A DNA stretch of 64,000 nt from an uncultured virus (IMG/VR IMGVR_UViG_3300038393_002953) (IMGVR_UViG_3300038393_002953); one strand, 5' to 3'. Counted from the stretch's first letter, positions 15,859-61,388 are shown. The notes: a model not told the origin generated them from the sequence alone. Program-made: numbers and translations.

Positions 15859-15860
15859 CC

Positions 15861-24023: not shown

Positions 24024-24044
24024 ACGCCAGCCCGAGCAGGGCCT

Positions 24045-24072
24045 GGGCCCCGGAGCAATCCGGGGCCCTTTT
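24045..24072 (+). terminator. Intrinsic terminator
   Basis: GGGCCCCGGA-GCAA-TCCGGGGCCC-TTTT. Confidence 0.85.
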
Positions 24073-24190
24073 CATGCATGAATGGCCGCGAAACCCTCCG
24101 TCCTAGCCCGCTACCGGACTCCGTAATACCCGTCCGGATCTGAAGAATTGCGGGAGATCCGAAAAATAATCGTTTTTTTCATAACGTTTT

Positions 24191-24227
24191 GGATATACGG
24201 CCCCCTCCACAGCTCCTATCGATATAG
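24191..24227 (+). promoter_or_regulatory. Putative phage-specific late promoter, copy 2
   Basis: GGATAT-N18-CCTATCGATATAG before the capsid operon. Confidence 0.55.
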
Positions 24228-24242
24228 AGAGGCATAGCTCCG

Positions 24243-26899: not shown

Positions 26900-28015
26900 A
26901 TGTACACCCTCCACCACGCTCAGCGTTACGTTTCGCAGTTCGGCCTGCCGATGGAGCGCCTCTCGGAGCAGGAGCGCGCCGACGCCTGGGGCGAGGTCGC
27001 GAGCCAGAACGCCGACCCCGCCGTCCGCCAAGAGCATGCCGAGGCGCTCGCCGCCCGCGTGACCGCCGAGATCGCCGCCGTCACCAAGGCCGCGAAGGAC
27101 CGCAACATCGAGGCCCTCAACGAGATCGCGGGCATCGTGCTGACCGCCGAGATCGTCCACGACATCCTCGCGGACAACATCGCGGGCCTGGTCCTCGGCA
27201 CCAAGAACGTCGGCCCCTACCAGACCCCTCACTACACCGAGAAGCGCCTGAACCGCACGGGCGTCTTCCAGAACGTGCCCTCGATCGGCGCCGTGCCCGC
27301 GTTCAACGTGGCCCACATGCACCGCGAGATCCCGATCGGCATGCAGGACAACCAGGCGGCGTACCTCTACAAGACCCGCAACCAGTACGTGGGCGAGGTC
27401 GAGGAGCGCGACGAGGCGGCTGCGGCGATCCGTCGCGGCATCCTGGAGAACCGCGAGAACTGCTTCATCGACAACATCCGCGAAGCGACCCGCACCACCA
27501 CCGCCGCCGGCAACGTCCTGGTCCACGGCCTGCCCGACATGGCCCTGCCCGGCAACCGCGTCGCCCCCTCGACCAACGTCCTGGTGGACAACCTCGCGAC
27601 CGGCCTCACGAAGAAGAACATCTCGGACATGATGTTCATGCTGGAGTTCTACGGCTTCCAGCCGCGCGTGATCTACTGCTCGGCCCTCCGCCGCAACGAC
27701 ATGCGCAACTTCGTCACCCTGACCTCCACCTCGGGCTCGCCCCTGGACTTCTTCACCCAGCGTGAAGTCCTCCAGTCCGGCAAGCTGGAAGGCCTCTTCG
27801 GCGTCCAGCTCCGCGTGCTGAACTACCTCGCCGACGACGAGCTGTTCATGTGGGACAACACCCGCGAGTTCGGCGACATCTACCTGCGCGGCGGCGTGCA
27901 GGTCGAGGACCGCCAGGGCCCCCAGCCGTTCACCCGCGAGCTGGTCGCCGCGCAGATCGAGGGTCAGGCCCTCTACAACGCGCGTCGCATCGTCAAGCTC
28001 AAGCTCATCCCGTAA
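26900..28015 (+). CDS. Major capsid protein (HK97 fold)
   Basis: 371 aa, strong codon bias, AAGGAG RBS, QREVLQSGKLEGLFGVQLRV P-domain-like motif. Confidence 0.8.
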   Translation: MYTLHHAQRYVSQFGLPMERLSEQERADAWGEVASQNADPAVRQEHAEALAARVTAEIAAVTKAAKDRNIEALNEIAGIVLTAEIVHDILADNIAGLVLGTKNVGPYQTPHYTEKRLNRTGVFQNVPSIGAVPAFNVAHMHREIPIGMQDNQAAYLYKTRNQYVGEVEERDEAAAAIRRGILENRENCFIDNIREATRTTTAAGNVLVHGLPDMALPGNRVAPSTNVLVDNLATGLTKKNISDMMFMLEFYGFQPRVIYCSALRRNDMRNFVTLTSTSGSPLDFFTQREVLQSGKLEGLFGVQLRVLNYLADDELFMWDNTREFGDIYLRGGVQVEDRQGPQPFTRELVAAQIEGQALYNARRIVKLKLIP

Positions 28016-29908: not shown

Positions 29909-29933
29909 CGGAGCGCCAGCCACCGGCACCACG

Positions 29934-29965
29934 CAGGGCCCCCGGCAACGGGGGCCCTGTTTTTT
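29934..29965 (+). terminator. Intrinsic terminator
   Basis: CAGGGCCCCCG-GCAA-CGGGGGCCCTG-TTTTTT. Confidence 0.9.
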
Positions 29966-46000: not shown

Positions 46001-48138
46001 AGCCGGAGGAGAAGGTCGAGATCCAGAGCGCGATCGACGCCCAGATCGCGGACATCGAGAAGCAGGATCGCGTGATCCTGGGCCTTGAGCTGGATGCGAA
46101 GAGCGTCAATGAGCAGATGACCGCGCTCCAGGAGAAGCTGATCGACGTGGCGTTCCAGTTCCGCGACGTCTGGAGCAACGCGCTCAAGGGCGCGGTGGAG
46201 GACTACTTCCAGTACGTCAACGAGATGCAGATGAAGCAGGTCAAGCTGGGCCGCCAGAAGGATCAGGAGTCCATGATGGACATCTTCATGGCGCCCTCGG
46301 CGGGTATGCAGAAGATGCGCCAGATCCGCGACACCATGTCCGCCAACGAGCAGAACGAGTACGATCGCCGCAAGCTGGAGGACCCCGGCTTCCGCTTCCA
46401 GGAGTCGCTCAAGCAGCGCTTCGAGGAAGGCAAGGGCGCCGCGATGGGCAACCTGGTCAACACGGGCGTGGACGCCCTGACCGGCTTGACCCAGACCGCG
46501 CTCACCGATCCCGACGCGCTCAGCGACATCGGCTCCGCGCTCGGCTCGGGCGACCTCTCGAAGGTCTTCTCGATCGCCAAGGGCCTGAAGGACAAGAACT
46601 CGCCCGAGGCCAAGGCGCAGAAGTCGTTCTCGATGCTCGATCGGGCCAGCACGCAGCTACTCGAAGCGGCACGCGTCCTGAAGGGCGACAAGACCGGCGG
46701 CCTGATCGACTCGACCGCCGAGGAGGTGTGGAGCAACCTGACCGGCGCGTCGCAGACCGTCGGCGCCGCCCGCGCGGACCTCACCCCCGAGCAGAAGGAC
46801 ATGGCGGGCGAGTTCGGTACGGACGTCGCGACGGGCCGCGACCCCTGGTCCAAGAACATCCTCTCGACGTTCGGCAATGACTCGTTCTTCGACGCCAACG
46901 CGGACTGGTTCGGCGACATGCAGAACCACGACTTCATGCAGAACCCGCTGGGTTCGATGGTCGCCAACGCGTGGGACGGCCTGAAGGGCCTGTTCGGACA
47001 GGGCCAGGACGTCGGCAACAAGGTCGTCCAGCAGCTCACCAACGGCCTGGCGGGCAAGGGCGCCAACACCGACATCCTGGGCGGCCTGTTCGGCCACGTC
47101 GCCCCGGCGGCGGGCGGCGGCGCGGGCACGGGCGCGGTCGGCGCCGCTGGCTCCGCCGGGGCGACCGGCACCACCGGCGCTGCGACCGCCGGAACCGTGG
47201 GCGTCGGCTCGCTGGTCGGCGCGGGCGTCGCTGGCACGGTCGCGGGCACCATGGGCGCCAACTGGCTCGGCGACACCTTCTTCTCGGCGGGCATGGGCCG
47301 CAACCAGAAGCAGGCGCGCGACAACAACGGCATGATCGGCGGCGCGATCGGCGGCGCTGCGGCTGGGCTCGGCGTCGGCGCGGCGCTCTCGATGACCGGC
47401 GTGGGCGCGTTGATCGGCGTCCCGCTGATGTTGGCGTCGATCGCGGCGGGCGGCTTCGCTGGCGGCCTGGGCGGCGGCACCATCGGTCGTATGCTCGGCA
47501 CGGGCGACGCGGCCCACAAGGACGACATGCTCGCCGAGCGCGACAACCGCATGGACCAGACCTTCGCCGAGATGCTGGAGGTGCAACGCCAGCTCGTGGA
47601 TGTCACCGCGCAGCAGACCCGCGCGTTGCAGTTCCAGGGGCAGAGCTACGCTCAGCTAGGCGACCTGATCCATCAGGACGTCCACCTGCTCTCGGGCTCG
47701 GCGGACATGTCGGGTCGCGGGTTCGACGCCCGCCTGATCGCCCCGGCGATCCAGATGGGCGTCGGCGCCCTGGTCGCCAACACCCCGGGCTACTCGAACG
47801 GCGGCGACGTGCCGGGCGTGGGCAACTCCGACACCTACCTGGCGCGCCTGACGCCCGGCGAGAAGGTCCTGAACAAGCGCCAGGCGCTCGACTACAACGT
47901 CGGGATGTCCGCGACGGCCCAGATGGCGCGTCAGATGGCCGCCTACCGCACCTCCGATAGCGGCGGGCTTAACCTGCCGGATCGCCACGTCGTCAACATC
48001 GAGTACAACGATCCCGGCTTTTCCCCGGCGCCCGTCACCCAGGAAGTCCAGGTCGCGCGCGCGGTCAGCCCCGGCATGTCCGGCGGCGGCATGAACGGCG
48101 ACATCTTCCGCGAGATCAAGAACCGAGGGCTTAACTAA
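34081..48138 (+). CDS. Giant tape measure protein (4685 aa)
   Basis: Long helical/coiled-coil, Gly/Ala hydrophobic stretches, C-terminal GGDVPGVGNSDTYLARLTPGEKVL motif; position in tail module. Confidence 0.88.
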   Translation: MATDELNPEGNVGVEVLVGLDTGDEGVERLEKALVKLISDVNTRMGAKKLAIFDTTQVQAIEKLSAIMGGMKTKKGSENFQSVTKAFEGQWQNVKNFADQISRVAEQVDRLNGVSFNVMGAQPSAASKHMAEEALRMQREVQQYSHAIAKATVNPAAADMYNKMADGLARVNIEKLQAIQIAFDKMNEGVSGTSVGNFISNIKDMQAAMGEAATDMGDLASHMTMIATTSSQFRRDNPFLSFLLGVDQRLGAVTEKMSAFRGAMQGMASMDFRLPEVVHVGAPAHGVAYQAARPAAPMPPVALPPQPVRPEAPTRPQALVAPTLAPIGGTTAIKDDQFQRAFNHLQELLRFGHAESKNPVVQAASQHLNLSGVVERIEDLLSGKLTRAVKGYQNNEASAEHVRRELAEVSAELKRFEGLRKTIERADEIMDLDGHDDHYDEAHDFATHVNNVLVELSNATRKANEALSRRMEQEASHKKALENFHAAGGDGGGAQALKQYETEMKQFEARMSRYENEMRAWEQKVSEIQAQAAQAHTAQAQVNAQATSQAQAASAAAQRPGTPAAASTAAQATASAVTATAMQPTYDQYPVRDGRTPLQQAMGSLKTRQDISAFFQKTGIGDPRAIALEMGLGASARPAREEQLQGVRMDHVLDAMARASHGKHGFGKKGGPEGTVNKLLASVSAETFALVGDILTNSADHDSPDQAEIRRQIRDLENRPLTRKMTAASARGKAGKASKAVHELNQERKAYAPGHPEYERIGKEIERKNQEIELFTHYADFPDSIPVEEADAAERDEKLSRLRAKLTSKGDSHFANTQKRYDAGKISSDEAMLEVQAQAEELLMQREKISQARQMATGMRGSLTDKLPTSDHDGKQAIEAQVAQIDKNLEYLQSVEATLDHAMVSLSHAMTKLSGGDSPNRARGEELLHAALASLGQKGFSAQALASVVPAEFHDREFATYTPGSGVVKANVLAAARMFDKAPADLSPEELPQVAQRVMEAKLAHDLAHRGLYENMTDTERQGTLLDFGEQYGLDRKRLMRLDKRQNFFDEGKEGYKPMFEDAQMQALAKEMVLERGYTLGKTVDTRLDFLNEVASEAYGRHVSGLDPLQHLGDPHENNPLLRIHAATTWDGQRPPMEPMAAARRSTPARPTFSTPVSMGPKQWRVEVEFLGKRYGLNATKGGEEGIAQVVGILPNLLKTETERKAFKQWRENMYTETRAAESPIKPADPDQVLGDLDKGNKGKVTVTEPGGLAAPAQTTTPPESGKQGKGQGKIKDESDIMPHEGVEVERKPFVREEDFFTPEDFKRRYPNAQAVAEGKSSIASTMVYHTGEIDSKTKNPVMITATTKNGQTYYQKAVSQKEVMGNLAPHDPLLGETLGMFHKGSPRLTEALKAMTGVLNIVPKTILPGQMAHLEAAEAVHDLGYGMRLYQGKTYQMNEHGGATLQPIDDRLIQIMGGDAIAAITKRRDDILEREKLAKGLAQADRRRIAGRIQQIEKMGKSGDMTMFPHIAFGANDQQNLGIGIDEKGQVVVADRYVGSSTKILRGVGKDALGAIPMIAQQYKDDLGADLTKEQREEKVFQHLKAQLGHAVANDQKFFETGEYSKGTHALFSVVNEYQARKDAKAREEAEQKRKEQEADDFAAIPRTTVSKAEQRALEARAKQEEKDRQEAATRRAAEERQRVEDGLKLARMQQGIAPHVSTDGMTPDQIRSEYARRRLASFAQNEAEAQRHAALNSTPDVLAGMKSASKLSDLLKAFGKLDMAAIDPKAAIEALVHFARQMEEVTVISQGEGHAAFYDPTMKQQYTAAIATSRGVEAVGGSKNKVGEYLAANGHIGAKPEVPGAGIKTEAELEAERLNKLSEAIHDAAARGSIQDLVKLFGQLVKEGGDASRVMSAFIRMMNQVEGLKTVASHAPEYHPDGTIKSQTVAYRDPATGKITAMTVRDGRGAISTHADEKAFNAHMTRLDNKPSQAMEMLFDAVERETGKVHRFFRDVDGKILSVAHELLSESETGGLEVGHEALKKAQRYITPEQLEHRWHGLSFHTPEDAQVAFGQMRKTMTERHEGKPNVYGVLNQALKDFSLLDHEGNEVGSADVFRNIKGADNDYTISYVKNGQHRIEMAKTEHEALAKLLMVGADLGKQEQRMAARYIKGRDNVEGARMAFGLDGENARLRIAGGTVANASPIMGLGMLADKIGLGGIPLTPGFQRHRTVYDKDLRQNVVEQEAIIEHHDKESGEKSYHLVTAKYSEDDFRALGKGAKEVLDLDRALDVTTKRMVNMHDVLREGNKINGSYRGGLLALMQEISKWGIGYMAVFAAMEKVKEGLGAIYDASKKVPTEQFKLGENLNVIQGGVGGAEGKGRGNAGAFYTAGGQKMSMQEARAIIKEAEEELASSGVDVEQAVPILGALTASVRQREGANSVSVARDLLKKVGQFSAVNDVDPAALADSLQTIGGTYKLGGEGQDRLMEVMNQTLLNSGGSINAPTYLKAMADSAETFKNAGVGTEGLSLLIGAGMQNASPNQAQRFGSTIPTLMANLKDPEIQRSLQSVFKREHGDLRNMSVPDILGIVLDELGTAEKTGNMTRKDQILQMVNARGQDTLAHMASNSLDKISEMTGGKVTSAKEFFKIAPMLDLDTLKSIGSRFGKRQQLDPALQQKILQAQMQVTIRELGEEVAPTTLMVMKELVEVFKDLNKNSEPLKNSLHGAVELAKVIGGFVIGLADAATRFPRWVLEAFGSHVGNSDKEKMNAQEGVSAPGALPATAQNGAMPPFKAGSLPSVPGEPTEASARHPWTLPGGNFNPLQPMANGLNMWQTDPSISTGMTLGAGALGLFGAYKLHSGATAFKALREEQMLMRQLGQNVSGRQRVGGAMSAIAEMLFPFGGGYARGASGRANELRERLQYQNESSSRLSSLEAAVRGMSGAANAVPGSHDPFAGMNAAMDAADIASNMAGGGAQPRTNAPHAPGAQRPGVLGRISYFARERWQSFTSPTENTLARAMSRGTEKSAAAMERFATFLGRGAAEAARNGEEAGKVATKMAGMGAKISGVAEGLTTFMGALLAIPSAVAALTIGLGVAATAAGIFAIKAAERTHDEKVEVQQQVSNNHADAQVGLLKQYRTDRRMLENRSKTGTAEERKQATDAMSSLNDVMDRFSHDARLQLLPGENETDETYQERLRKVHTEQQDAYVRARRESGANKIVGEEFGKERDAKAEAERVAALKKQGLGPDGKPLTDPNARHDPNEEVIDYQKHLGLSGSFSAEAQWKGQSVQAMEGAGMMNSFTGIRSFLGTQGSFDKRIQDAEAELAQAEQKTNASDPFQQAELRAKRQELDMLKLERQRQNMEQSDRYFSVSNQMMEGRQQGIDQYAQQSRIKKEGGAFSAREDYAIQASVTAEMDSQIEKQKELVKAELQRTDARLRPEKYQQLEVQLMTLTTKQMQAQVNLLKQKLEINAQMYEIGGKLLDFESAIASATKTGGDLSAKKMEISQKHYNMNLSSLAKLMATMKDGNIDNIMKEAIALLTQNANLLEENRNQALQYVSQIGEFVKSYSDLGALWASGEGAKDAMNIQAAMTKEMVAQKDLAIAEATTKEGSIERESAKLKILMAQREVLNAQNALAERQVHVQAELFKTRMQTPYGGAFTANVNDRLGIRNNRDVEMRALSTLLDDNGLKAQGDAMDRNQGRHFSLKRMEDAVGALQARRDALAALNPEANVRKEFGKATASAVKSAKGNAEEIKRLTGLRDVLIGLMGQGATPAQVQSLVRLLPRFKEFAQRENRENFGAHGGVTTPEKTAQAGGSQIGATEDLKGQVTGILGMTASPSTIKEVMDSFSGVVSMKGFDASKLDLSEMAKYLMLWTQLSNATGAVTDAQEKLTRATSMTNDEKKKEIEYQDMLADRLGEEAQLRGKQAALGAQRAHNMRNDVFGGSVYQARERQAKIDEIAARMEKEAAHRDGMVGDLNDLRARMAKAKPEEKVEIQSAIDAQIADIEKQDRVILGLELDAKSVNEQMTALQEKLIDVAFQFRDVWSNALKGAVEDYFQYVNEMQMKQVKLGRQKDQESMMDIFMAPSAGMQKMRQIRDTMSANEQNEYDRRKLEDPGFRFQESLKQRFEEGKGAAMGNLVNTGVDALTGLTQTALTDPDALSDIGSALGSGDLSKVFSIAKGLKDKNSPEAKAQKSFSMLDRASTQLLEAARVLKGDKTGGLIDSTAEEVWSNLTGASQTVGAARADLTPEQKDMAGEFGTDVATGRDPWSKNILSTFGNDSFFDANADWFGDMQNHDFMQNPLGSMVANAWDGLKGLFGQGQDVGNKVVQQLTNGLAGKGANTDILGGLFGHVAPAAGGGAGTGAVGAAGSAGATGTTGAATAGTVGVGSLVGAGVAGTVAGTMGANWLGDTFFSAGMGRNQKQARDNNGMIGGAIGGAAAGLGVGAALSMTGVGALIGVPLMLASIAAGGFAGGLGGGTIGRMLGTGDAAHKDDMLAERDNRMDQTFAEMLEVQRQLVDVTAQQTRALQFQGQSYAQLGDLIHQDVHLLSGSADMSGRGFDARLIAPAIQMGVGALVANTPGYSNGGDVPGVGNSDTYLARLTPGEKVLNKRQALDYNVGMSATAQMARQMAAYRTSDSGGLNLPDRHVVNIEYNDPGFSPAPVTQEVQVARAVSPGMSGGGMNGDIFREIKNRGLN

Positions 48139-48611
48139 TGTCTGAACGCTGGACCATCCGACAAGGCGCCCGGGCGTGGACGAGCGTGAAGCCGTCCACG
48201 GAGTTCCCCGACATCTCCCTGCCGTCCTCGGGCTCCTTCTCGCTGAAGGAGAACCCGACGGAGGTGCAGGAGGATTACCGCCTGCCAATCGTGACCGTGA
48301 CAAACATCAACGGCATGGATATCGACATCGAGCCCTGCGCGGTAAACGGCATCCCCGCGAAGAACCAGAAGCAGACCTTCACGATCCAGCATCTGAACGA
48401 GGAGAACCACCAGCGCCTGAAGCTGCTGTTCTTCAACCGCGTGCCCTTCTACATGGAGACGAACAACTACCAGGCGTCACCGCGCCGGGGCCGCCGCATG
48501 CTCGTGAAGATCCTGGAATACCGTGTCACCTGGCAGGCGATGCGCTACGATCAGCAGATCTACAACGTCTCGATGACTTGCCGGGTGCTGCGGGAGGGCT
48601 ATGGCGTATAA
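48138..48611 (+). CDS. Distal tail protein candidate
   Basis: 157 aa, TAATG overlap with tape measure. Confidence 0.55.
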   Translation: MSERWTIRQGARAWTSVKPSTEFPDISLPSSGSFSLKENPTEVQEDYRLPIVTVTNINGMDIDIEPCAVNGIPAKNQKQTFTIQHLNEENHQRLKLLFFNRVPFYMETNNYQASPRRGRRMLVKILEYRVTWQAMRYDQQIYNVSMTCRVLREGYGV

Positions 48612-48632
48612 TGTTTGAAGAGGGCATCCATA

Positions 48633-49145
48633 ATGTACCGATTCTACACGCTCACGCGCGTCATCCCCACCCCCAACCCGCGCAACCGCCAGCCCGGCGT
48701 GCTGGTGTTCGCCGAGGCGCCGCCCGTCGTCGAGGGCCTCCACGACCTGCCGCGCCAGTCCGTGAAGCTGAACGAGATGGAGACCGGTACGGTCAACCTG
48801 GAGTACGGGCCCGACCCTGCCAACCAGGAGATTCGCCTGACCTTCCAGGCCATCCCCGAGATCGTGATGAAGGCCTGGGAGGACGAGTACCTCGACCCGA
48901 CCAACGTGGACGGCGTGTACGCGCTCTCGGACCACCGGGGGCGCGTCACCAGGGTCAAATGGAAGCGCTTCCGTGCGCAGCTCCAGGGCACGCTGCCCAA
49001 GGAGGACGTGCAGAACTGGCTCCAGCACTACGCCGCGCGCTATGCCCTCGACGACCTCGACCCCGATTACGGCGACATCGCTGATCTCTACCAGGTCACC
49101 ATGGAGTTCTTCGTGGTGCCGGAGCCGCTGATCTACCCCTCATGA
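48633..49145 (+). CDS. Distal tail-like protein
   Basis: LPRQSVKLNEMETGTVNLEYGP shared with next gene. Confidence 0.55.
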   Translation: MYRFYTLTRVIPTPNPRNRQPGVLVFAEAPPVVEGLHDLPRQSVKLNEMETGTVNLEYGPDPANQEIRLTFQAIPEIVMKAWEDEYLDPTNVDGVYALSDHRGRVTRVKWKRFRAQLQGTLPKEDVQNWLQHYAARYALDDLDPDYGDIADLYQVTMEFFVVPEPLIYPS

Positions 49146-50239
49146 TCCGACCCTTCCTGATCAACCAGACGCGATCCAAGGAGATCCACCCGGACGTGCC
49201 CTACCGGCTTCGCCAGGTGGACTTCTCGCTGCGCTTCGAGATCAACCCGGGCCAGGTCGCGGGCTGGTACGAGATCCCCCGACAGATCGCGTCGGTCGCC
49301 GAGATGGAGGTCGGCACGGTCCACCTGGACTACGGCCCGAACGTACGCGCCGGTCGGCTCTCGCTGAGCCATCCGCTCGTCTCGCAGTCGTTTTTGGACT
49401 CGCTGGAGGCGCTCTCGCACCTCTACCGCCTCGGCAACTGGATGCTCTGGAACCACCGGGGCGATCGCTTCGAGGCCGCGCCCACCGACGGCTTCAAGGC
49501 CAAGCTGATCGCGACCATCCCCGGGCTCGACGAGGCCTCTGAGCCCGCCCGCATCGGCGCGCTACCGGGCCGCTACATCTTCGACTACGCGGACTGGTCG
49601 CTGTTCTACGTGCGCGAGGACGGCGGCTGGCTCTACTACGGCGAGGACGGCGCTGATAGGCAGACGCTCGGCCAGGGCACCGACGCGACGGTGGCGAGTT
49701 CGACCGACGGGCGGCGTTACGCGGCCTACGGTCGCGGCGGAAAGCTCTACCTGCGCGCGCAGGACCCCACCGGCGCGTGGCTGCCCGAGATGGGCGTGCT
49801 GCGCACGGGTGACGGACCCGAGGCGGCCTTCGACCCCGCCGCGCGTTACCACAGCCCCTGGCTGGTCAACGTCTTCGGGCGCATGTGGCTGTTCTACCTG
49901 AAGAGCGTGGGGGGTGAAAGCGTGATCCAGTACCGCCTGGAGAGCCAGGACTGGCTGGAGGAGCATACGATCCCGACGCTCGGCGGGCCGAAGGACTCGG
50001 TGCGCGCGCTGACCTACCGGGGATCCCTGGAGGTCCTCTGGATCAACTGGGACGTGACGCGCGACGACTCGACCGCGCGTGTGCCGAACCTCTATATGGT
50101 GCCCTCCACGCCGCCCCAGGTGACCTACGCGACCCGCGAGAACGTGGTCGCCCGACAGGGCAACTACGTCCCCGTCAAGGACGCCGTGCCGCTCCCCTAC
50201 GACGCCCTCGACATCGAATTCTTCTCCGTCACGAGGTAG
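49142..50239 (+). CDS. Distal tail-like protein with inserted beta-propeller-like region
   Basis: IPRQIASVAEMEVGTVHLDYGP; aromatic beta-rich middle. Confidence 0.55.
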   Translation: MIRPFLINQTRSKEIHPDVPYRLRQVDFSLRFEINPGQVAGWYEIPRQIASVAEMEVGTVHLDYGPNVRAGRLSLSHPLVSQSFLDSLEALSHLYRLGNWMLWNHRGDRFEAAPTDGFKAKLIATIPGLDEASEPARIGALPGRYIFDYADWSLFYVREDGGWLYYGEDGADRQTLGQGTDATVASSTDGRRYAAYGRGGKLYLRAQDPTGAWLPEMGVLRTGDGPEAAFDPAARYHSPWLVNVFGRMWLFYLKSVGGESVIQYRLESQDWLEEHTIPTLGGPKDSVRALTYRGSLEVLWINWDVTRDDSTARVPNLYMVPSTPPQVTYATRENVVARQGNYVPVKDAVPLPYDALDIEFFSVTR

Positions 50240-50241
50240 CC

Positions 50242-50823
50242 ATGCGCTTCGAGCCCCCGATCCGACTGAAACGAACCGACGACCTCTGGGACCTGGGTCG
50301 CCAGGCCGAGCCGCGCGCCAGGCGCGTCGCGCTGCACGACTACCTGCCCGAGGTCAAGGCGATCTTCATCCCCGAGCTGCTCTGCCCGATCACCGGCGAG
50401 GTCGCCGCGCGCGCCTTCGGCCCTTCGCCGAACACGATTCTCGATCGCGCGCTGGAAAAGTTCCTGGACGGCTTCCGCCCCAAGGACTTCAACGTGATCG
50501 GCGTCGGCACCGGCGCGGCGGTCCCCAACCGCGTGCAGGACGGGTTGTTGGACGAGAAGGCCCGCGCGGACGGCGGCGCTCCCCACGGTCCCCGTATGAA
50601 CGCGATCACGCAGATCGACTCGACCTCCTGGTCGCTGGAGGCCTACTTCCCGGCGGCCTACGCGAACTACGACCTGACCGAGGCGGGGCTCTGGAACGGC
50701 GTGGCCGGTTACATGAACCGATCGCTGTTCCTGGACCTGAGCGAGAACCCCGTGATCGTCCCCAAGACCTCCGCCTTCCTGCTGCGCGTCACCAGCCAGG
50801 TCGTCGTGGTCCTGAACCCCTAG
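50242..50823 (+). CDS. Tail collar/fibre-attachment-like protein, paralog 1
   Basis: NTI..IGVGTG..ANYDLTEAGL..NRSLF. Confidence 0.6.
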   Translation: MRFEPPIRLKRTDDLWDLGRQAEPRARRVALHDYLPEVKAIFIPELLCPITGEVAARAFGPSPNTILDRALEKFLDGFRPKDFNVIGVGTGAAVPNRVQDGLLDEKARADGGAPHGPRMNAITQIDSTSWSLEAYFPAAYANYDLTEAGLWNGVAGYMNRSLFLDLSENPVIVPKTSAFLLRVTSQVVVVLNP

Positions 50824-50832
50824 GAGGCTGAG

Positions 50833-51618
50833 ATGCTGAAGAGCTGCACGGGCGTCCTGGAGTTCTACGACCGCGAGACCGGCGAGGTCCTGGCGCGCTG
50901 GGAAGACACCAACGTGATCCTGCAACAGGGCATCCAGGGCTTCCTGGGCAACCCCGGGGGCACGAACTGGGTGCCCTGGAACCAGTGGCGTATCCAGATC
51001 GGCACGGGCTACGCGAACCCGCCCGAAGCCGACTGGCTCTCCGGCCTGGACCACCCGATCTGGACGTCGGGCACGGACAACACGACCTACGAGCGCGAGG
51101 GTAAACAGGTCACGGTCACAGCCGAGATCGATCCGCTGGAGGCCAACGGCGATCTCACGGAGGCCTGCCTGTTCTCGAACAAGGCGTTCAACCGCATGAT
51201 GTTCAAGAGCCCGCCGCTGCTGCCCGCCGGGACCTACGAATACTTCGTGGTCAACCAGATCGGCCAGCGCTTCTCGCCGCCCAGCAACATCCAGTCGATC
51301 CCCACCGCCGAGGTCGGCGCGCTGCGTCTGAACTGGAGCCAGCAATACACCGGCATCGTGGACAAATACTGGCTCTTCAGGCGCATCGTGGGCGTCGAGG
51401 ACGACTACAAGCTGCTCGTCGCCACGCCCAACACGTTCTTCATCGACGCGGGCTTCGCCGCCGCGAGCGCGGTGGCGCCCTTGAGCCAGGATCCGGCGAT
51501 CACCGCGCCGTCGCTGGCCTTCCCGCTCTTCTCCCCACAGATCAAGAACCAGCCCAAGGCGCGGACCAAGAACCAGGACGTTGGCGCGCGCATCAAGATG
51601 ACCCTCGGCTTCTCATAG
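50833..51618 (+). CDS. Tail collar/fibre-attachment-like protein, paralog 2 (FN3-like insert)
   Basis: NVI..IGTG..EANGDLTEACLF..NRMMF. Confidence 0.6.
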   Translation: MLKSCTGVLEFYDRETGEVLARWEDTNVILQQGIQGFLGNPGGTNWVPWNQWRIQIGTGYANPPEADWLSGLDHPIWTSGTDNTTYEREGKQVTVTAEIDPLEANGDLTEACLFSNKAFNRMMFKSPPLLPAGTYEYFVVNQIGQRFSPPSNIQSIPTAEVGALRLNWSQQYTGIVDKYWLFRRIVGVEDDYKLLVATPNTFFIDAGFAAASAVAPLSQDPAITAPSLAFPLFSPQIKNQPKARTKNQDVGARIKMTLGFS

Positions 51619-51628
51619 GAGACTCCCC

Positions 51629-52192
51629 ATGTCCGAACCCCGTATCCTCTTCTACGCGCCGACGACGCCCTCCATGACCTACCTGACCAACTTGCCGTTC
51701 CTCGCGGCGGACGGCTCGGCGGCCATCAAGGCGGGCGACTTCAGCGGCAAGCGCCAGATCGCGATCTGGAACAACCCCAACTCCGGCGGCACCATGGATC
51801 CGGCCAGCCCGCCGCCGGGCGGCTACGGCAACACCGGCGCCGACCCGGACAACCCGATCGACGGAGTGGTCAAGGCGCTGAGCGTGGACATCACCTCGCG
51901 CGACAACGCGGCGGGCGGCGCGGTCACGGACGTCGTGACGGGCCGCTGGCTCAACATCTTCTTCCCGAACGGCAACGGCGCCGACGCCGAGGCCAACCAA
52001 CCCGCCGGTTCTCCGGGCAACGCCGACGGCGGCAAGTACGTCGGCATGAACGGCGCGACCTCGCAGGCGGCGGTGATCGGCACGATCAACCCTAACTCCT
52101 ATTTCCTCGTCGAAGCCCGCCTCAAGCCGCCCGGGACCGCGCTCTCCGGCAGCCGCAACTTCGTCATGCGCGTCTCCTACTCCTTCCAGTAG
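51629..52192 (+). CDS. Putative tail structural protein
   Basis: 187 aa, Gly/Asn/Pro-rich, AGGAG RBS. Confidence 0.65.
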   Translation: MSEPRILFYAPTTPSMTYLTNLPFLAADGSAAIKAGDFSGKRQIAIWNNPNSGGTMDPASPPPGGYGNTGADPDNPIDGVVKALSVDITSRDNAAGGAVTDVVTGRWLNIFFPNGNGADAEANQPAGSPGNADGGKYVGMNGATSQAAVIGTINPNSYFLVEARLKPPGTALSGSRNFVMRVSYSFQ

Positions 52193-52201
52193 GTCGCGCG
52201 C

Positions 52202-52675
52202 ATGTCCCGCGACCTCTGGGGTTTCAAGGCCCACTTCACCGTGGAACTCTGGGAGCCGGGTCCGGACGGCGACGAGCGCGTCGCCCTGATCCGCAGCCCG
52301 AACCGCGTCCTGCGTGCCGGGCTCTTCGCCATGGTCACGCAGGGCATCTACCCCAGCCAGTTCGACCACTTCGTGATCGGGACCGGGGAGGCTGCCGAGT
52401 CGGCGGCGCTCCCGGGCCTGGTGGCGCCGCTGCCGGACTCGATCCGCGCGGGAACGCCGCTCGAATTGCCGTTCCCGCAGTGGGGCTTCACCACCACCTA
52501 CCAGCCCGGCGAGGCCACGGGGAACTGGACCGAGATCGGCATGCGCTTCGGCCCGAGCGGCCCCACGATCAACCGCTCGCGTTTCATCGACGGCGCCCAC
52601 AACTACATCGTGGTCCCGAAATACGTCAACCGGCGCGCCACGGTCTCAGTGGTCTTCACCATGTTCAGAGCCTGA
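52202..52675 (+). CDS. Tail collar/fibre-attachment-like protein, paralog 3
   Basis: NRV..IGTG..EATGNWTEIGM..NRSRF. Confidence 0.6.
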   Translation: MSRDLWGFKAHFTVELWEPGPDGDERVALIRSPNRVLRAGLFAMVTQGIYPSQFDHFVIGTGEAAESAALPGLVAPLPDSIRAGTPLELPFPQWGFTTTYQPGEATGNWTEIGMRFGPSGPTINRSRFIDGAHNYIVVPKYVNRRATVSVVFTMFRA

Positions 52676-52676
52676 C

Positions 52677-52920
52677 GTCAACAGCCCCATAACTGAAGCA
52701 AGGGGCTTGTCATTCCAGATTTCGTCGCTCGGGGCAACGCCAACGGAGTGGAACGGACGACAATAGGCCGGTTGACGGATCGGCCCTTCGGGCGCCATTC
52801 GGTCCCGCGATGCCGTCAAGCTAGCACGAAAGGATGTTCGATGCAACAGGCAGTTGCGGCTCACGCCGCCCGCCTTTTCCTTCCCAGATCTGAAGGGCGG
52901 GGTCTCCAAGGCGGTTTCTG
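52677..52920 (+). mobile_element. Non-autonomous IS200/IS605 (IscB/omega-RNA-like) mini-element
   Basis: Starts GTCAAC-AGCCCC..CTGAAG..GGGGCTTG, closing GTTGAC at 52771-52776; ends CCGCCTT..CTGAAG..GGGG..AAGGCGG; followed by ATGAA; lower GC than flanks. Confidence 0.7.
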
Positions 52921-52921
52921 A
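52841..52921 (+). pseudogene. 26-codon remnant ORF inside the mini-element
   Basis: AAAGGA RBS; MQQAVAAHAARLFLPRSEGRGLQGGF; TGA overlaps ATG of next gene. Confidence 0.45.
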
Positions 52922-55230
52922 TGAAAGCTTACTTTTTCCTCTCGCTGCTCGATCAGGACGACCGCCCGATCTCGGGCTGGGGCGAGAACCTCGTACTGGA
53001 CGCGGGCATCGAGGCGCTGCGCGGCCACCACGGCCAGGGCATGTTCTACCTGCCACGGCTGCTGATCGGCGGATCGGACTACCCCGCGAAGCCGGAACAG
53101 CCCGGGCTGCTCAAGCCCCTCTACGCCGCCGACGCGGGCATCCTGACCGCGACGCAGGACAACCACGACCCCTACGTCTTCTTCACGGCCTACGCCGACT
53201 TCGCCGAGGACGAGGCGACCGGGCGCTGGGCCGAGATGAGCTTCAACGGGTGGAACCGCTCGCTGTTCACCGCTCCCGCGTCGTTGCCGGACGGCCTGTA
53301 CGGGTATGCGGTCACGGCCTACAACGCCCATGGCGAGAGCCCGGTCTCGACGATCCGGGAGGCGATCGTGTCTTCCCCGCCGTGCGCGACGGGCTTGCAG
53401 GCGCGAAGGGGCGCGACCGCGCTGCCCAACCGCGTCGAACTGCTGACCGATAGCCCCCAGACCGACACGATCCAGGTCCACTTCATGACGCTCTCCTGGG
53501 CCACCGGCGTCTCCGGCTGCCTGAAGTGGGTCGCGGCTCGCCGCCCGGACGTCACGGATCTGGCCCACACCTTCGCGATCGCGATCGGTCGCGACGGACT
53601 CTACTACTACGAATACGACGGCTTCCGCATGCCGCTGGACCCGCAGCCTATCGCCGATCAGGAGCGCACGTTCGCGCTGCCCGCCTCGGGCACCGGGGAG
53701 CGCTGGCGCGCCCGCGCGATCCTAGACGTGTCCGCCTGGCCCAGGAAAGAGGGCGACGACGCCTGGCGGCGATCGGACGGCTCGATTGCGACGGAGGCAG
53801 AGTTCTTCGGCGACCAGCCGGTCGTGCGGTTTCGCGAGGGCAGTTTCGGCACGACACACCAGGCTTACTACTCCGCCTCTTCCGCGCTGTCGGGGCCGCT
53901 GATGCCCTACAACCAGGTCGCGCTGCCCGCCGGGTACGGCTACAACCCCGCGTATGACCCCGGCGGCGCGCGCTACGCGTTCGACTTCATCGGCGCGCCG
54001 GACGACCAGATCGATCCGACGCTCTACCCGGGCGATCGCCCCTACCACGTCCCCTTCCAGGCCTTCTGGCGCTCCGGTCAAGCCGACTCGTTCGATGGCG
54101 AGGTCTTCGAGCAGCCAGGTGTGTTCCGGCTGACCATGTGGAAGGGCGCCCAGGAGCCCGGCGCCGACGACATGGCCGAGATCGACATCTACGGCGCGGG
54201 CCGCACGGGTGGGGCGTTCCTGGAGTGGGCGCACGTCGATCGGATCGGGCCGGGCGGCTGGCCCGAGGGCTACCGGGTCTACCGCCGCAAGCCGGACGGT
54301 ACACTCGGTCGTCTGGCCGACTTGCCCGCCGCCTTCGCGCGCGACCCCCAGGGCGTCATGCGCGGGAGCGGCGACACGCACTTCTGGGATCGCGGCGAGG
54401 TCGCCCCCGACGCCGCCCCGGCCCCGAGCTTCACGGGTGCCGCCGCGATCGACGGCGCGTCCTTCGTCGCGCAGGCCAGGGCGGGCATGCTGCCGAAGCC
54501 CCTGGTCAAGGACGGCATGATGCGCGGGCGGCTGAGCGCGCAGATCTTCTTCTACGACTTCAACGCGAACGACCCGACGGGCGTGACGATCGCGCCCCAT
54601 GAGGCGACCGTGAGGGCGGGTGAGTCTCTGGTGCTGACCGGGCACGTCGTGAACGACTACGGCGAGCCCATGCCGGGCCTGACGCTCGACTGGTCAGCGC
54701 CCTCCGGCGGCACGATCGCCCCCAGCCCTGACACCACCACGGCCTCGTTCGGCCAGACCACCGCCGGGGTCTACGCGGTGCAGGCCTCCTACCAGGACGC
54801 GGGTGACGCCTGCACCGTCACGGTCGTGCCCGGCGACATGGCGTCGCTGGCGCTCGGCGATCCCGCGCTGACCGCAGGCGTCGAGGGCGGCTGGGACGGG
54901 GCGCGCGAGACGCTCTCGCTGACGCTGCCGGAGGGCGGAGCGGGGAGCGCGCAGGTGCCGGTTTCCGGCCTCGACGCCTACGGCAACGCCGCGAGCGCGT
55001 TCGCGCGCAACTGGAGCCTGGACGGGACCTCCCAGCGCGACGCGGGCGCGGACGGCGCCTACGTCGGGCCGCCCCATGACGTCGAGACCCCGGTCGCGCG
55101 GCTCACGGGCGACGGCGTGATCGAGCTTCTCGCGCCCGGAGCTGCTATAATCGAGGTGAGGGAGATCCTCGACGGCGGCCAGCCGTCGCCGGTCACGAGG
55201 TCGTTCAGCCTGTCCTTCTCCTGGAGGTAG
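52921..55230 (+). CDS. Tail protein: collar-like domain (paralog 4) with large insert and C-terminal Ig-like domains
   Basis: NLV..EATGRWAEMSF..NRSLF; YGYAVTAYNAHGESP FN3-like; VTIAP..ATVRAGES Ig-like. Confidence 0.65.
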   Translation: MKAYFFLSLLDQDDRPISGWGENLVLDAGIEALRGHHGQGMFYLPRLLIGGSDYPAKPEQPGLLKPLYAADAGILTATQDNHDPYVFFTAYADFAEDEATGRWAEMSFNGWNRSLFTAPASLPDGLYGYAVTAYNAHGESPVSTIREAIVSSPPCATGLQARRGATALPNRVELLTDSPQTDTIQVHFMTLSWATGVSGCLKWVAARRPDVTDLAHTFAIAIGRDGLYYYEYDGFRMPLDPQPIADQERTFALPASGTGERWRARAILDVSAWPRKEGDDAWRRSDGSIATEAEFFGDQPVVRFREGSFGTTHQAYYSASSALSGPLMPYNQVALPAGYGYNPAYDPGGARYAFDFIGAPDDQIDPTLYPGDRPYHVPFQAFWRSGQADSFDGEVFEQPGVFRLTMWKGAQEPGADDMAEIDIYGAGRTGGAFLEWAHVDRIGPGGWPEGYRVYRRKPDGTLGRLADLPAAFARDPQGVMRGSGDTHFWDRGEVAPDAAPAPSFTGAAAIDGASFVAQARAGMLPKPLVKDGMMRGRLSAQIFFYDFNANDPTGVTIAPHEATVRAGESLVLTGHVVNDYGEPMPGLTLDWSAPSGGTIAPSPDTTTASFGQTTAGVYAVQASYQDAGDACTVTVVPGDMASLALGDPALTAGVEGGWDGARETLSLTLPEGGAGSAQVPVSGLDAYGNAASAFARNWSLDGTSQRDAGADGAYVGPPHDVETPVARLTGDGVIELLAPGAAIIEVREILDGGQPSPVTRSFSLSFSWR

Positions 55231-57931: not shown

Positions 57932-57941
57932 GGGGGTGCCC

Positions 57942-60900
57942 ATGGCCGTCTTCAGCGAAGCCGTCGGCTACTTCGGGCTCCAGGCCCCCATCGCCCCCGT
58001 GGAGGCGACGGGGGGCTTCGCGCTGAAGGAGGCGGGCTACTTCTTCGAGGACTGGCTGGCGTTCTCGTCCGGCGACGCGACGGGCGGGGCGGCAGACTAC
58101 GCCTCGAACGCGCTCGTCTTTGGCGCCGCCGGGGGCGACTGGACCTCCCCGCTGCTCGACACCCAGGGCTGGGCGATCGGGGCATGGGACGGCTGGGAGG
58201 CGCTGACCTCCTCCGGCGCGGCGGCGTCTCTGGAAGCACGCTCGACCGACGATCCGGCGAGCCCGGCGGACTGGATCCCCCAGGCCGCTGGGACGCTTTC
58301 CGTGCCGATCCGTCGCTACCTCCAGTTCCGGGTCACGGTGAGCGCCCCGGGGGGCGCGCTGGCCTCGCTCGCGCTCTTCTGGGTCCGCCAGAAGCTCGTC
58401 GCCGCGAGCGCCTCGCCCGCCCCGATCGCCGTGGGCGGCGCTCACACGATCGGCCAGGCGCCCCTGCTGAACGAGACCAAGACGGCCAGCCCAGCGCCGA
58501 CCGCCATGGCCGTCGAGACCCGCCACCAGACGACAGGGCCCGTGGCGATCGCCGAGGTCGCGCCGATCGGCGGCCTGCTCCGCCATACGATGGAGCGGCG
58601 CGATGACGACGGTTCCTCTTACTCGCGCGTCGCGCTGCCGAACGGCAGCCGCTTCCGCAAGACCCTGAACCTGCCCACGCGCCCCCAGGGCCAGGGCATG
58701 GTGATGCTGGAGATCGGTATCGATCGACCGGGTAAGACCTCATCGGACGCCGACCCGATCGTGGACGTCGCCACGATCGGCCCCGTCTGGGTCTCGGTCA
58801 ACGGCGTCGCCTTCGACGCCCGTTCGGCGCTCGCGGGCGCGCTGATGGAGGACCGTCTGAACCGGGTCGCGCTGCCTTCCTCCGCCTTCGCGCTGGGCGA
58901 CAACCTGATCGAGGTCTGGAACGAGCCCTCGGCGGGCGAGACGCTCTACGCGGGCCTGGACGCGGGGGACATGGCGGCGAGCGGGCCTTTCCGCCGTCCT
59001 GGCCCCGACTCCGCCATCGCCGCGCCCCTCATGTTGACCCCGATCCTCTCGGGGCCGGACGCGCGCGTCAGCGCCTCGTCGCAATACTCGGACTGGGCGC
59101 CCTACCGCGTCTTCGACGGCCTGAAGACCGACCGCAACGCGAACTGCTGGGCCTCCGACGGCTCGGGCTTCCCGCAGTGGCTGCGCTGGGACTGCGGCGC
59201 GCCCACGCGGCTGACCGGCTACGCCGTGGTCACGGACGGCGGTCTCGCGCCAGATCAACGCCCGTCTGCATGGCAGCTCCAGGGCTCCAACGACGACGGC
59301 GCGACCTGGGACGTGCTGGACGACCAGGCGGGTGTCACCTGGCAGCCCCTGGAGGAGAAAGCCTTCGCCGTCGATGCGACCTACGCCTCCTACCGGCTCT
59401 ACCTGACCCAGGCGAGCGGCTCGAACTACCTGACCATCGCCGAGTGGAAGCTGTCCGGCGCGGGCATGGTCGCCACGCCGATCGCCGACGGCGAGCTGCG
59501 CTTCTGGGCCTACTCGCCCGAGCCGCGCGTGGTCGAGAGCAACCTCTTCCTGCGCCAGCTCGATGCATCCGTCGAGATCGTCCGGCCCGCCGCCGGGCTG
59601 GAGGTCTCGGCGCTGATCGAGCAGGCCTCGTCCGCCGACCTGGACGCGAGCGCGGACGTCATGGTGGGCCGCCAGGTCGCGCTCGACGCCTCCGCCGAGA
59701 TCACGCGAGACGCCACCGACCTGCCCGCGTCCGCCTACGCCACGGCGCCCGCGTCGCTAGGGGCCGACGCGACCGTCACGCGCCCCGACGCGACGCTTCC
59801 CGCCTCGGCGACCGTCACGGCGCCCGTGGACCTGCCCGGCTCGTTCGACCTGGCCTTCTACCTGGACCTCGACGCGATGGGTCAGATCGTGAGGGCCTAC
59901 GCGGATCTGCCCTGCCAGGTGACGATCAAGACGGTGCTGGACCTAGACGTATCCGCCACGCTGGTCGCGCCGATCCACCTCGCGGCCTCCGCCACGATCG
60001 TCACGCCCACGATCGCGCTGGATGCCTCTTTCTCGATCTCGCGGGACGGGGGCACGCTGCTGCCCGCCTACGCGACGACGGCCCGTCCCGCGAAAGACCT
60101 CCCGGGCGCCTTCATGGTCTCGGGCGCGTTCGGGCGGGATCTGGACGCCAGTGCCCGCGTGCGCCGCTCGTCCGAGACCGCGCTGGACCTCTCCGTCGTT
60201 TTGGCCGAGCCCGCCCAGTACCTGCCCATGAGCGCGAGCGTCACGCGCGTCCCGGTGCTGGACGCCTCTTTCTCGATCGCGCGGCCCGCCAAGGACTTCC
60301 CCGCGAGCGCCGAGGTGATCACGGCGGGCATAGGCGCGCTCGACGCCATGACGGAGATCTACCGACCCTACCGGGCGCTTCCCATGAGCGCGCTGGTGGC
60401 GGTGCCGCACGCGACCTCCCTGGCCGCGCGCGCCACGGTCATGGACACCTCGCGCGCCACGAGCCTGCCCGCCTACGCCTCCGTGATCCCGCTGCGCGAG
60501 AAGGCGCTCTTCTTCCGGGCCGATGTGCTGCCCTACCGCGAGCTGGGCGTCACGGCGGAGATCTACCGGCCCTACGACGATCTGCTCGCCTCGGCGACGA
60601 TCCGCACGCGCGCGGAGGGCTCTGTGATCGCCGACGCGCTCTACGCCGCGACCTCCGAGAACGTGTCGATGAGCTGGCAGACCATCCAGCCGCTCGACGC
60701 GCTCACGCGTGATACAATGGGCATAAGGCTCTCGGACGGGGACGCCGCCGACTACGACGAGCTGCCCTTCAAGGAGGGTCGGACCGTCGAGCGCGCGGAA
60801 CTCGGCCTGGCGGACGCGGAGATCGGCTTCCGGACCTACGCGGACGACAACGCCAACTGGGGTATGCCCGTCAAGCTCACCAACAACCTCTACCCGAACG

Positions 60901-61388
60901 AGGTCGTCTCCAACCCCTTCCTGGGCGCGATCGACGACGTGCTGGTGGTGGGCTTCGAGGCGGGCAACGGCGACCCCGATCTGACCCGGCTGCACGTCGT
61001 GCGGCGGGACGGGCCGGACGCCTGGACGCCGATCAAGCAGGTGGAGGGCACCGCCGGTTCGATCGCGGGCGGCGCGCTGCGCTTCACCGGCGAGGAGGGC
61101 GTCTACGAATGGGTGCCCCCGGGCCCCGGCGACGACGCCTACGAGATCGAGGCGCCCTTCGACCCGATCGAGCGACGCGACCGCCGCGAGATGGCGCTGG
61201 CCTGGGACGTGCTGCTCTACGAGATGCAGAAGCAGGGCGAGATCGTCTACCCACCTCCTGCCTGGCCGCGCAACCCGATGACCGACCACCTGGTCCTCTC
61301 GATCCGCGAGGTCGCCCCCACCGAGCCGGGGAGCCTGGAGCCGGACTTCTCCTACCAGCCCACCTTCGACGACATCATCATCCAGTAG
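57942..61388 (+). CDS. Tail fibre / receptor-binding protein with discoidin (F5/8 type C) domain and repeat shaft
   Basis: SASSQY..PYRVFDG..WAS..PQWL..PSAWQLQGSND..W..LD..YRLY at ~59070-59460; 27 short repeats follow. Confidence 0.75.
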   Translation: MAVFSEAVGYFGLQAPIAPVEATGGFALKEAGYFFEDWLAFSSGDATGGAADYASNALVFGAAGGDWTSPLLDTQGWAIGAWDGWEALTSSGAAASLEARSTDDPASPADWIPQAAGTLSVPIRRYLQFRVTVSAPGGALASLALFWVRQKLVAASASPAPIAVGGAHTIGQAPLLNETKTASPAPTAMAVETRHQTTGPVAIAEVAPIGGLLRHTMERRDDDGSSYSRVALPNGSRFRKTLNLPTRPQGQGMVMLEIGIDRPGKTSSDADPIVDVATIGPVWVSVNGVAFDARSALAGALMEDRLNRVALPSSAFALGDNLIEVWNEPSAGETLYAGLDAGDMAASGPFRRPGPDSAIAAPLMLTPILSGPDARVSASSQYSDWAPYRVFDGLKTDRNANCWASDGSGFPQWLRWDCGAPTRLTGYAVVTDGGLAPDQRPSAWQLQGSNDDGATWDVLDDQAGVTWQPLEEKAFAVDATYASYRLYLTQASGSNYLTIAEWKLSGAGMVATPIADGELRFWAYSPEPRVVESNLFLRQLDASVEIVRPAAGLEVSALIEQASSADLDASADVMVGRQVALDASAEITRDATDLPASAYATAPASLGADATVTRPDATLPASATVTAPVDLPGSFDLAFYLDLDAMGQIVRAYADLPCQVTIKTVLDLDVSATLVAPIHLAASATIVTPTIALDASFSISRDGGTLLPAYATTARPAKDLPGAFMVSGAFGRDLDASARVRRSSETALDLSVVLAEPAQYLPMSASVTRVPVLDASFSIARPAKDFPASAEVITAGIGALDAMTEIYRPYRALPMSALVAVPHATSLAARATVMDTSRATSLPAYASVIPLREKALFFRADVLPYRELGVTAEIYRPYDDLLASATIRTRAEGSVIADALYAATSENVSMSWQTIQPLDALTRDTMGIRLSDGDAADYDELPFKEGRTVERAELGLADAEIGFRTYADDNANWGMPVKLTNNLYPNEVVSNPFLGAIDDVLVVGFEAGNGDPDLTRLHVVRRDGPDAWTPIKQVEGTAGSIAGGALRFTGEEGVYEWVPPGPGDDAYEIEAPFDPIERRDRREMALAWDVLLYEMQKQGEIVYPPPAWPRNPMTDHLVLSIREVAPTEPGSLEPDFSYQPTFDDIIIQ
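59556..60614 (+). repeat. 27 tandem 12-15 aa repeats, consensus xL(D/P)AS(A/F)x(V/I)
   Basis: e.g. DLDASADV, DLPASAYA, TLPASATV, ALDASFSI, DLLASATI. Confidence 0.85.

Follow-up and report, generated by a model that had tools for sequence, protein, structure and literature searches.

The RNA-guided transposon family IS200/IS605 is ancestral to Cas12 and Cas9. The transposase TnpA of this family excises and inserts one DNA strand 3' of a short motif without duplicating the target, and a cut by the nuclease at the motif-flanked "donor joint" (the empty site) is followed by repair that restores the element (PMC8612924, PMC5934647, bioRxiv 10.1101/2023.03.14.532601). ISDra2 and IS608 are inserted 3' of a motif of 4-5 nt that is kept in the left flank, have subterminal imperfect palindromes, and give rise to a guide RNA (reRNA) of ~150 nt that ends in a flank-derived guide (PMC8612924, PMC5934647). 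The reRNA stems from the 3' end of tnpB and the right end (RE), its last ~16 nt from the DNA flanking the RE (PMC8612924). Minimal elements of the PATE kind (palindrome-associated transposable elements) have been described (bioRxiv 10.1101/2023.03.14.532601), and standalone omega-RNAs act in trans with compatible effectors, their biological role being called unknown (PMC10691335). Here we analyzed 64 kb of DNA from an uncultured virus (IMG/VR IMGVR_UViG_3300038393_002953), the whole of which we call the window. A gap between two genes of its tail operon, which encode proteins of 157 aa and 769 aa, holds a stretch of 244 bp (52677-52920). This stretch is very probably a non-autonomous, TnpB-derived element of the IS200/IS605 family, of the PATE or standalone omega-RNA kind, on the minus strand.

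Like PATEs and standalone omega-RNAs, the window element has no protein gene, has two subterminal palindromic ends, a target-adjacent motif (TAM) at its left end (LE) and no target duplication, and carries a guide-RNA template close to the RE (bioRxiv 10.1101/2023.03.14.532601, PMC10691335). It differs from them in its place in the tail operon of an uncultured soil phage, in a scaffold that is unalignable at 52792-52851, and in that neither a cognate TnpA or TnpB nor further copies were found in the window. With ISDra2 and IS608 it shares insertion 3' of a motif kept in the left flank, the imperfect palindromes, the lack of a duplication and, as predicted, a reRNA with a flank-derived guide, whereas their motifs are TTGAT and TTAC instead of TTCAT, and their end sequences are unrelated to those of the window element. 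TTCAT is the wild-type TAM of a Geobacillus IscB element (bioRxiv 10.1101/2023.03.14.532601). Terminal inverted repeats were absent, as expected of a member of the IS200/IS605 family. TnpB-encoding elements of the IS605/IS1341 type (L008, L020, L025, L039, L042 and others) have the same RE blocks, a covarying helix GGCnG/CnGCC, the terminal hairpin, the same LE consensus and the motif (T)TCAT. These elements measure ~1.2-1.3 kb and contain tnpB and a promoter region after the LE, whereas in the window element these two are missing and the second hairpin is longer. Its parts and those of the surrounding gap are as follows.

52677-52920, minus strand: whole element, 244 bp, which reads TAM, left end (52920 to ~52852), right end (to 52677), flank, and contains no gene
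52677-52791, minus strand: right-end part, covered by the RE profile, RNAalifold and the 5' domain of HEARO; in full-length relatives the RE-proximal scaffold of the omega-RNA
52792-52851, minus strand: internal stretch, no profile match, only a loose GATGTT..GCA resemblance
52852-52920, minus strand: left-end part, with the outer stem 52870-52874/52910-52914 and the conserved block GGGGTCTCC at 52899-52907 (plus-strand reading)
52921-52925, minus strand: TAM TTCAT; ATGAA on the plus strand, where it is the start of the 769-aa gene and holds its start codon
52659-52676, minus strand: putative guide flank, made up of the last 17 nt of the 157-aa gene and C52676, antisense to the gene end
52677-52682: GTCAAC, boundary word of the right end
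52683-52707: AGCCCC/GGGGCT hairpin with CTGAAG in the loop, subterminal palindrome of the right end
52766-52770 and 52781-52785: helix GGCCG/CGGCC, part of the right end
52771-52776: GTTGAC, complementary partner of GTCAAC
52890-52895: second CTGAAG, in a hairpin closed by CCGCCTT (52870-52876) and AAGGCGG (52908-52914)

Ends of the 244-bp element

Both ends of the element are homologous to ends of the IS200/IS605 family, its boundaries and its motif can be read directly, and neither a target duplication nor a nuclease gene is present. We wrote a search motif from the left side of the gap and from consensus words of HEARO (RF02033), the IscB omega-RNA, and scanned it against IMG/VR. The motif was matched by 41 stretches in viral contigs. 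An Rfam scan found HEARO at 103-155 bits in 7 of 20 loci (8 matches), where it begins with the motif's first base, and not in the other 13. At the loci of the HEARO group an open reading frame (ORF) of 400-475 aa follows the motif on the same strand. Five of the 11 ORFs examined were RRXRR + HNH proteins (IscB) and six had no family; five of the latter were wrong-strand shadows of TnpB-group loci and the sixth was L030. In a second group the opposite strand has an ORF of 353-391 aa whose 3' end overlaps the motif. This ORF encoded TnpB (OrfB_IS605 + Cas12f1-like TNB) in 10 of 11 loci, and the exception, L040, was probably missed due to a wrong choice of frame. Since genes for IscB (with HEARO) and for TnpB lie beside the motif, we concluded that the motif is a bottom-strand reading of the right end of IS605-family elements.

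The alignment of the window with the TnpB-type ends extended beyond the fixed letters of the motif and comprised GGGGCTTGT..CTA, ACAATAGGCnGGTTGAC and then GCCC. A profile of the RE from 17 viral loci, the window excluded, had a single match in the window (nhmmer, 52677-52791), which began at profile position 1 and reached 38.2 bits and an E-value of 1.6e-11 in a search space of 128 kb, a value that is in part due to construction, as the loci had been fetched with a motif derived from the window. When only the columns beyond GTTGAC were used as a profile, the window gave no match. A profile of the IscB-type ends (15 sequences) covered only 34 nt (52677-52710; 13.2 bits, E 0.0014), compared to the 115 nt of the TnpB-type match, and by this comparison the end is probably of the TnpB type and not of the IscB type. 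RNAalifold predicted 14 pairs for 18 sequences in tnpB orientation, and compensatory changes were seen in 7 of them. In the window, the covarying inner helix is complete (5 of 5 pairs), and so are the 4 invariant pairs of the terminal hairpin. The minus strand of the window aligned with the tnpB-sense strand of the 17 loci, and since the RE is probably of the TnpB type, a guide RNA would come from the minus strand.

The left ends of the loci had never been part of any search pattern, so that the LE provided an independent test. In their consensus, (T)TCAT and the boundary are followed after ~13-16 nt by GGAGACCCC, a CTTyAG-containing loop, GGGGAGGA and an outer stem, and the minus strand of the window matches this consensus from 52925 downward. 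With a profile built from the LE of 18 viral elements of the IscB or TnpB type, the window excluded, the best match in the window was at 52874-52925 (23.3 bits, E 1.9e-6), and the last five columns of the model fell on ATGAA. A cruder profile from 14 loci had its best place in the window at 52926-52877 (E 5.9e-4). The second-best match of the 18-locus profile was the hairpin of the RE (52685-52708, E 0.53), which is understandable because one transposase is expected to bind both ends. The terminal letters CTG/ATGA, with the boundary at the slash, are identical in the window, L016, L018, L022 and L041. Among the mapped viral elements the LE boundary was followed by ATGA in 15 of 20 and by GTGA in 5 of 20, counts that are biased, as only these two words were allowed by the expression used for mapping. 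No repeat, as a target-site duplication would have left, is present in the flanks TGAC and ATGAA. TTCAT is the reverse complement of the ATGAA at which the 769-aa gene starts, and this explains the exact placement of the element between stop and start without a duplication.

In viral contigs the family seems to lie often directly before a start codon. Of the 15 elements with an ATGA boundary, 8 have an ORF of 70 codons or more that starts right there (8 of the 20 mapped), compared to 294 of 1555 ATGA sites (18.9%) in the same loci, a count that is subject to the same bias of the mapping expression. The 8 boundaries belong to L004, L006, L010, L016, L025, L027, L028 and L033; the boundary in the window at 52921 likewise lies before a start codon.

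A copy of 68 nt of the LE, identical to 52852-52919 (and to this part only) at 63 of 68 positions, was present on a contig of 1754 nt (X4) and on one of 434 nt (X6), that is, in two of four soil runs. We take this copy to be the left end of a related element, relatives of the window element thus existing in the same habitat. The end of its homology at 52852 is most simply explained as the junction of an internal deletion. Both junctions of the element were spanned by contigs without a difference from the window, the left one in X5 (52452-52886) and the right one in X6 (52764-52923 and 52898-53302). Three viral relatives of the window element also lack a nuclease: L022 (2120-2555, minus strand), with HEARO at 133 bits, an LE 381 nt from the RE and a tRNA gene beside it; L023 (2501-2860), with HEARO at 155 bits and no IscB ORF; and L037 (2501-2680), a TnpB-type mini-element of ~170-200 nt between two genes.

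Two further observations concern these relatives. The 12-mer TAGCACGAAAGG is common to the unalignable stretch of the window (52822-52833) and to L037 (~2643-2654), where it lies just beyond the left-end hairpin; it may be due to chance or hint at a more complex history. On a single small contig from IMG/VR (L016-L018; 15,986 nt), at least three elements with IscB and HEARO follow each other in tandem at intervals of ~2.4 kb.

A first-pass annotation of the locus had described a mini-element lacking a nuclease gene, and every motif and hairpin that it listed is present at its place. Its extent agrees with an RE match that starts at 52677 and an LE match that ends on ATGAA, and the two hairpins are, as the annotation had taken them, the subterminal palindromes of an IS200/IS605 element. 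A TAM of the ATGAA type had been proposed too: on the minus strand TTCAT abuts the LE, in the same register as in the mapped viral elements. The reading of TGAC/ATGAA as a junction without duplication is correct, and a guide would lie in the flank adjoining 52677, as had been assumed.

Counter-evidence and alternative readings

Besides the partly built-in E-value of the RE match, a number of results weigh against a TnpB-derived element or against its activity. The motifs of the gap taken singly were at chance level: repeated hexamers amounted to 6 versus 9.6 in shuffled sequences. Inverted 7-mers (4 versus 2.4) were not above chance either, the best local hairpin had -17.4 kcal/mol versus -16.9 in shuffles, and the fold of the whole gap gave z = -0.59. 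A hairpin of the window is ~28 nt longer than in the TnpB-type relatives, and 52792-52851 has no demonstrable homology, so that the scaffold of a guide RNA may be incomplete. Rfam gave nothing at gathering level for the whole window. A scan by E-value of 801 nt listed only mir-383, CRISPR-DR29 and EBER1, all at chance level, and not HEARO; in a scan of 321 nt (52640-52960) HEARO was the sole listed family (plus strand, 52677-52853, model positions 1-211), with 11.5 bits and an E-value of 3.8 over 4227 families, compared to a gathering score of 83. The window contains no second copy of the gap, and tblastn with 10 TnpB and 5 IscB proteins had no match in it. Pfam scans of 62 ORFs found no transposase or nuclease family that would fit such an element, apart from the LAGLIDADG domain of an intein in a terminase-like ORF. 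Scans with exact words of the LE found nothing in IMG/VR, JGI metagenomes and GTDB genomes. No contig joined 52676 directly to 52921 in any of the four soil runs, though contigs drop rare variants. With regard to activity, the promoter region that lies between LE and tnpB in the full-length relatives is missing, and no sigma-70-like promoter was found on either strand of 51000-54500.

In combination, the motifs match the end profiles of the IS200/IS605 family far beyond chance. That the first-pass annotation identified the element correctly is notable, since none of its features stands out statistically alone. The internal stretch 52792-52851 may have decayed from the 3' part of the tnpB coding sequence together with the upstream scaffold. 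A remnant of the TnpB protein in the gap was considered and rejected: the best tblastn match had an E-value of ~0.05, and matches to VNxPIV and STGLL merely restate the conserved DNA block. Two matches of a loose LE pattern were chance matches in coding DNA.

The alternative that survives best concerns only the present function of the element and not its origin. The relic may have been exapted, with its left end now serving as leader, ribosome-binding site and structure that sets the translation of the 769-aa fibre protein; we consider this improbable. The insertion broke a 1-nt coupling of stop and start, and the only Shine-Dalgarno-like word before ATG 52921 (AAGG, 52908-52911) sits in the outer stem of the LE. 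An ORF of 26 codons (52841-52921) has a good Shine-Dalgarno word and a TGA that overlaps the ATG, but its GC content at third positions (GC3) is 0.54, compared to 0.92 for phage genes. The element was identical in contigs of independent runs, but these contigs probably represent one strain.

More doubtful still is an IscB-derived element, as assumed in the first-pass annotation, whose plus strand would be a shortened HEARO or omega-RNA and would obtain, by read-through of the operon, the end of the 157-aa gene as a 5' guide, for use by IscB or IsrB in trans. The covariance-model search that the annotation had suggested returned HEARO as the only Rfam family for 52640-52960, on the plus strand, with model position 1 at 52677. 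The first ~100 model positions match well (GUCAAC..CCCC..CUrAAG..GGGGCUUG..GUUGAC). However, these positions represent the right end common to the transposon family; the long central helix is deleted, the 3' domain is lacking, and 11.5 bits falls not only below the gathering score but also below the liberal cut-off of 15 bits used by Meers et al. for degraded HEAROs (bioRxiv 10.1101/2023.03.14.532601), whereas genuine viral HEAROs reached 103-155 bits. IscB-type elements have the same RE hairpin, LE and TAM, and L022 and L023 demonstrate that nuclease-less elements of this type with a full HEARO occur in viral contigs, but the IscB-type profile ended after 34 nt, whereas the TnpB-type match includes blocks that are absent from IscB-type loci. 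Transcription of the plus strand is plausible, as the element sits in a plus-strand operon; in the TnpB-type relatives, however, tnpB lies on the strand that matches the minus strand of the window, which argues against a plus-strand read-through RNA as the guide. An iscB parent or further copies, for which the annotation had also suggested a search, were not found in the window, nor did contigs of the four runs, subject to their loss of rare variants, provide the empty allele.

A native intergenic region (weak terminator, leader and ribosome-binding site for the 769-aa gene), whose likeness to transposon ends would be fortuitous, is extremely improbable: the GC content of the gap (0.61) lies within the range of 0.42-0.76 for the other intergenic regions of the phage, a second long gap (24024-24242) likewise ends before ATGAAAG, hairpins and repeats are singly at chance level and no other copy or empty site was found, but two separate end profiles peak at the two edges of one gap in the right order, orientation and TAM register, and the second gap has neither an end-profile match (among the matches listed) nor a HEARO match and possesses the canonical terminator that the studied gap lacks.

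An ordinary terminator or leader had been the reading first favoured; it was dropped after the HEARO match and the end profiles. A reading as small ORFs (57 aa from 52748; 26 aa from 52841) was also rejected, as these show no phage-like codon bias and a cro-like PHROG match had only an E-value of 0.035.

The phage and the genes around the element

The genome that harbors the element is that of an uncultured soil phage of ~143 kb (longest contig 143,485), whose DNA was found in soil and rhizosphere metagenome runs (10 DNA runs and no RNA run among those listed). The GC content of the window is 67%, and its genes have a very high third-position GC. The structural module is on the plus strand, from ~14.6 kb on. 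The following genes and matches are relevant here.

15849-19601, plus strand: terminase-like ORF, 1250 aa, with weak PHROG matches to helicase, endonuclease, terminase large subunit (E 2.8e-5) and primase
26900-28015: major-head-protein PHROG match, in the structural module
34081-48138: ORF of 4685 aa, phage-like in its codon bias and without a Pfam match, between head and tail/fibre genes
50242-50823 and 57936-61388: PHROG matches to tail fibre or tail
52202-52675, plus strand: upstream gene, 157 aa, GC3 0.92, stop TGA at 52673-52675, followed by C52676
52921-55230, plus strand: downstream gene, 769 aa, Ig-like domain, GC3 0.92

The genes from 48138 to 52675 leave little room between them (-4 to +32 nt at each junction). 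In contrast, 245 nt (52676 to 52920) separate the stop of the 157-aa gene from ATG 52921. This gap is non-coding, with a GC3 of 0.57-0.58 in the tested frames versus 0.92 in both flanking genes. The annotation had called it the only large gap of the operon, which holds for the region after the 4685-aa ORF, where it is the sole long one, but the structural module also has the gap of 219 nt at 24024-24242.

By its ESM Atlas model, the 157-aa protein is similar to a cluster of phage proteins with the N-terminal domain of tail-collar fibres (PF12571; template modelling score, TM, 0.78/0.80), and it has a weak match to phrog_5417. Its predicted structure also resembles the N-terminal part of phage proteins of 413-680 aa, some with F5/8 type C domains. 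The product of the 769-aa gene is a probable tail or fibre protein. It matched Big_1 with an E-value of 7.7e-5, below the curated cut-off, and had three full-length relatives with 38-44% identity among 1.84 billion representatives (HMMER). The start at 52921 is genuine, since these three distant relatives align from residues 1-4. Other relatives of the flanking proteins were limited to the window's own proteins and one fragment with 42% identity, and a search at shorter length gave none. Loci that encode the three relatives of the 769-aa protein were not found in IMG/VR, JGI metagenomes and GTDB genomes.

The phage has almost no relatives. A tblastn search against GenBank phages found nothing for both flanking proteins, the capsid protein and a 606-aa protein. 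At the DNA level, 51600-54000 had no match in GenBank phages and plasmids, and the gap alone had only chance matches of 31-32 nt in coding regions. No tRNA or tmRNA genes were found in the window.

The gap at 24024-24242 served as a control. Its canonical terminator (24045-24068) is followed by AT-rich DNA, and ATGAAAG comes next, as it does after the studied gap. The control gap had no HEARO match and a partial match to the small-RNA family BjrC68 over its terminator (E 2e-4). It was absent from the full match lists of the RE profile and the 14-locus LE profile, and absent among the listed matches of the 18-locus LE profile. A 9-mer common to both gaps (GATCTGAAG) was discarded as chance, a local alignment being no better than shuffles (p 0.88), and a MAFFT alignment of the two gaps was uninformative. 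No promoter- or terminator-like sites were found inside the studied gap; canonical terminators occur at 24045 and 29933.

Within the 1250-aa ORF there are domains for intein splicing and for a LAGLIDADG homing endonuclease, both of them matched in two stretches. The phage thus harbors other mobile elements. The 4685-aa ORF occupies the usual position of a tape measure gene and would be exceptionally long for one. Extended -10-like boxes (TGnTACAAT, TGCTATAAT) are located 10-25 nt before the structural genes at 30003 and 30958 and are preceded by a strong terminator (29933-29960). The phage seems to use promoters of the host's sigma-70 type within its structural module.

Proposed origin, possible activity and significance

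We propose that the TnpB-derived element most likely arose from a TnpB-encoding element of the IS605/IS1341 type that lost tnpB by an internal deletion, which would have left ~68 bp of the left end and ~115-176 bp of the right end. A Y1 transposase (TnpA) acting in trans would have inserted it by single-strand "peel and paste" immediately 3' of TTCAT, that is, exactly before the start codon of the 769-aa gene. Such an insertion would leave both genes intact and would have turned a stop/start junction of 1 nt into one of 245 nt. The transcript of the minus strand would be a guide RNA for TnpB, with the complement of 52659-52676 as its 3' guide, which would match the element-free junction. Together with a compatible TnpB provided in trans, it would lead to cleavage of phage genomes that lack the element and so favour the element's copying.

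We consider it unlikely that the guide function is still active. The element may be an inert passenger, its left end now being the leader of the 769-aa gene. A selfish drive based on the guide alone, in which the minus-strand RNA together with TnpB of the host or of a sister element would cut element-free siblings at TGAC/ATGAA and thereby convert or exclude them upon co-infection, is likewise unlikely. As part of this scenario, the sister element could be a full-length one to which the 93%-identical left-end copy from the same soils belongs.

This kind of element is already known, and the window element is a further example, located in the tail-gene operon of a phage. TnpB-type right ends form a class that Rfam missed at gathering level in all 13 non-HEARO loci scanned, which matters for annotation. 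The element indicates that this RNA-guided transposon family leaves nuclease-less miniatures that bear a guide template inside essential phage operons. Its placement between stop and start is explained by a simple rule, the target motif being the reverse complement of the start codon context: because (T)TCAT and ATGA(A) are reverse complements of each other, the family can land before start codons, which would offer harmless docking in packed viral genomes. If the guide were active in trans, such miniatures could function as gene drives, or as weapons in the competition of phages, like homing endonucleases, and this would be a new role for standalone omega-RNAs.

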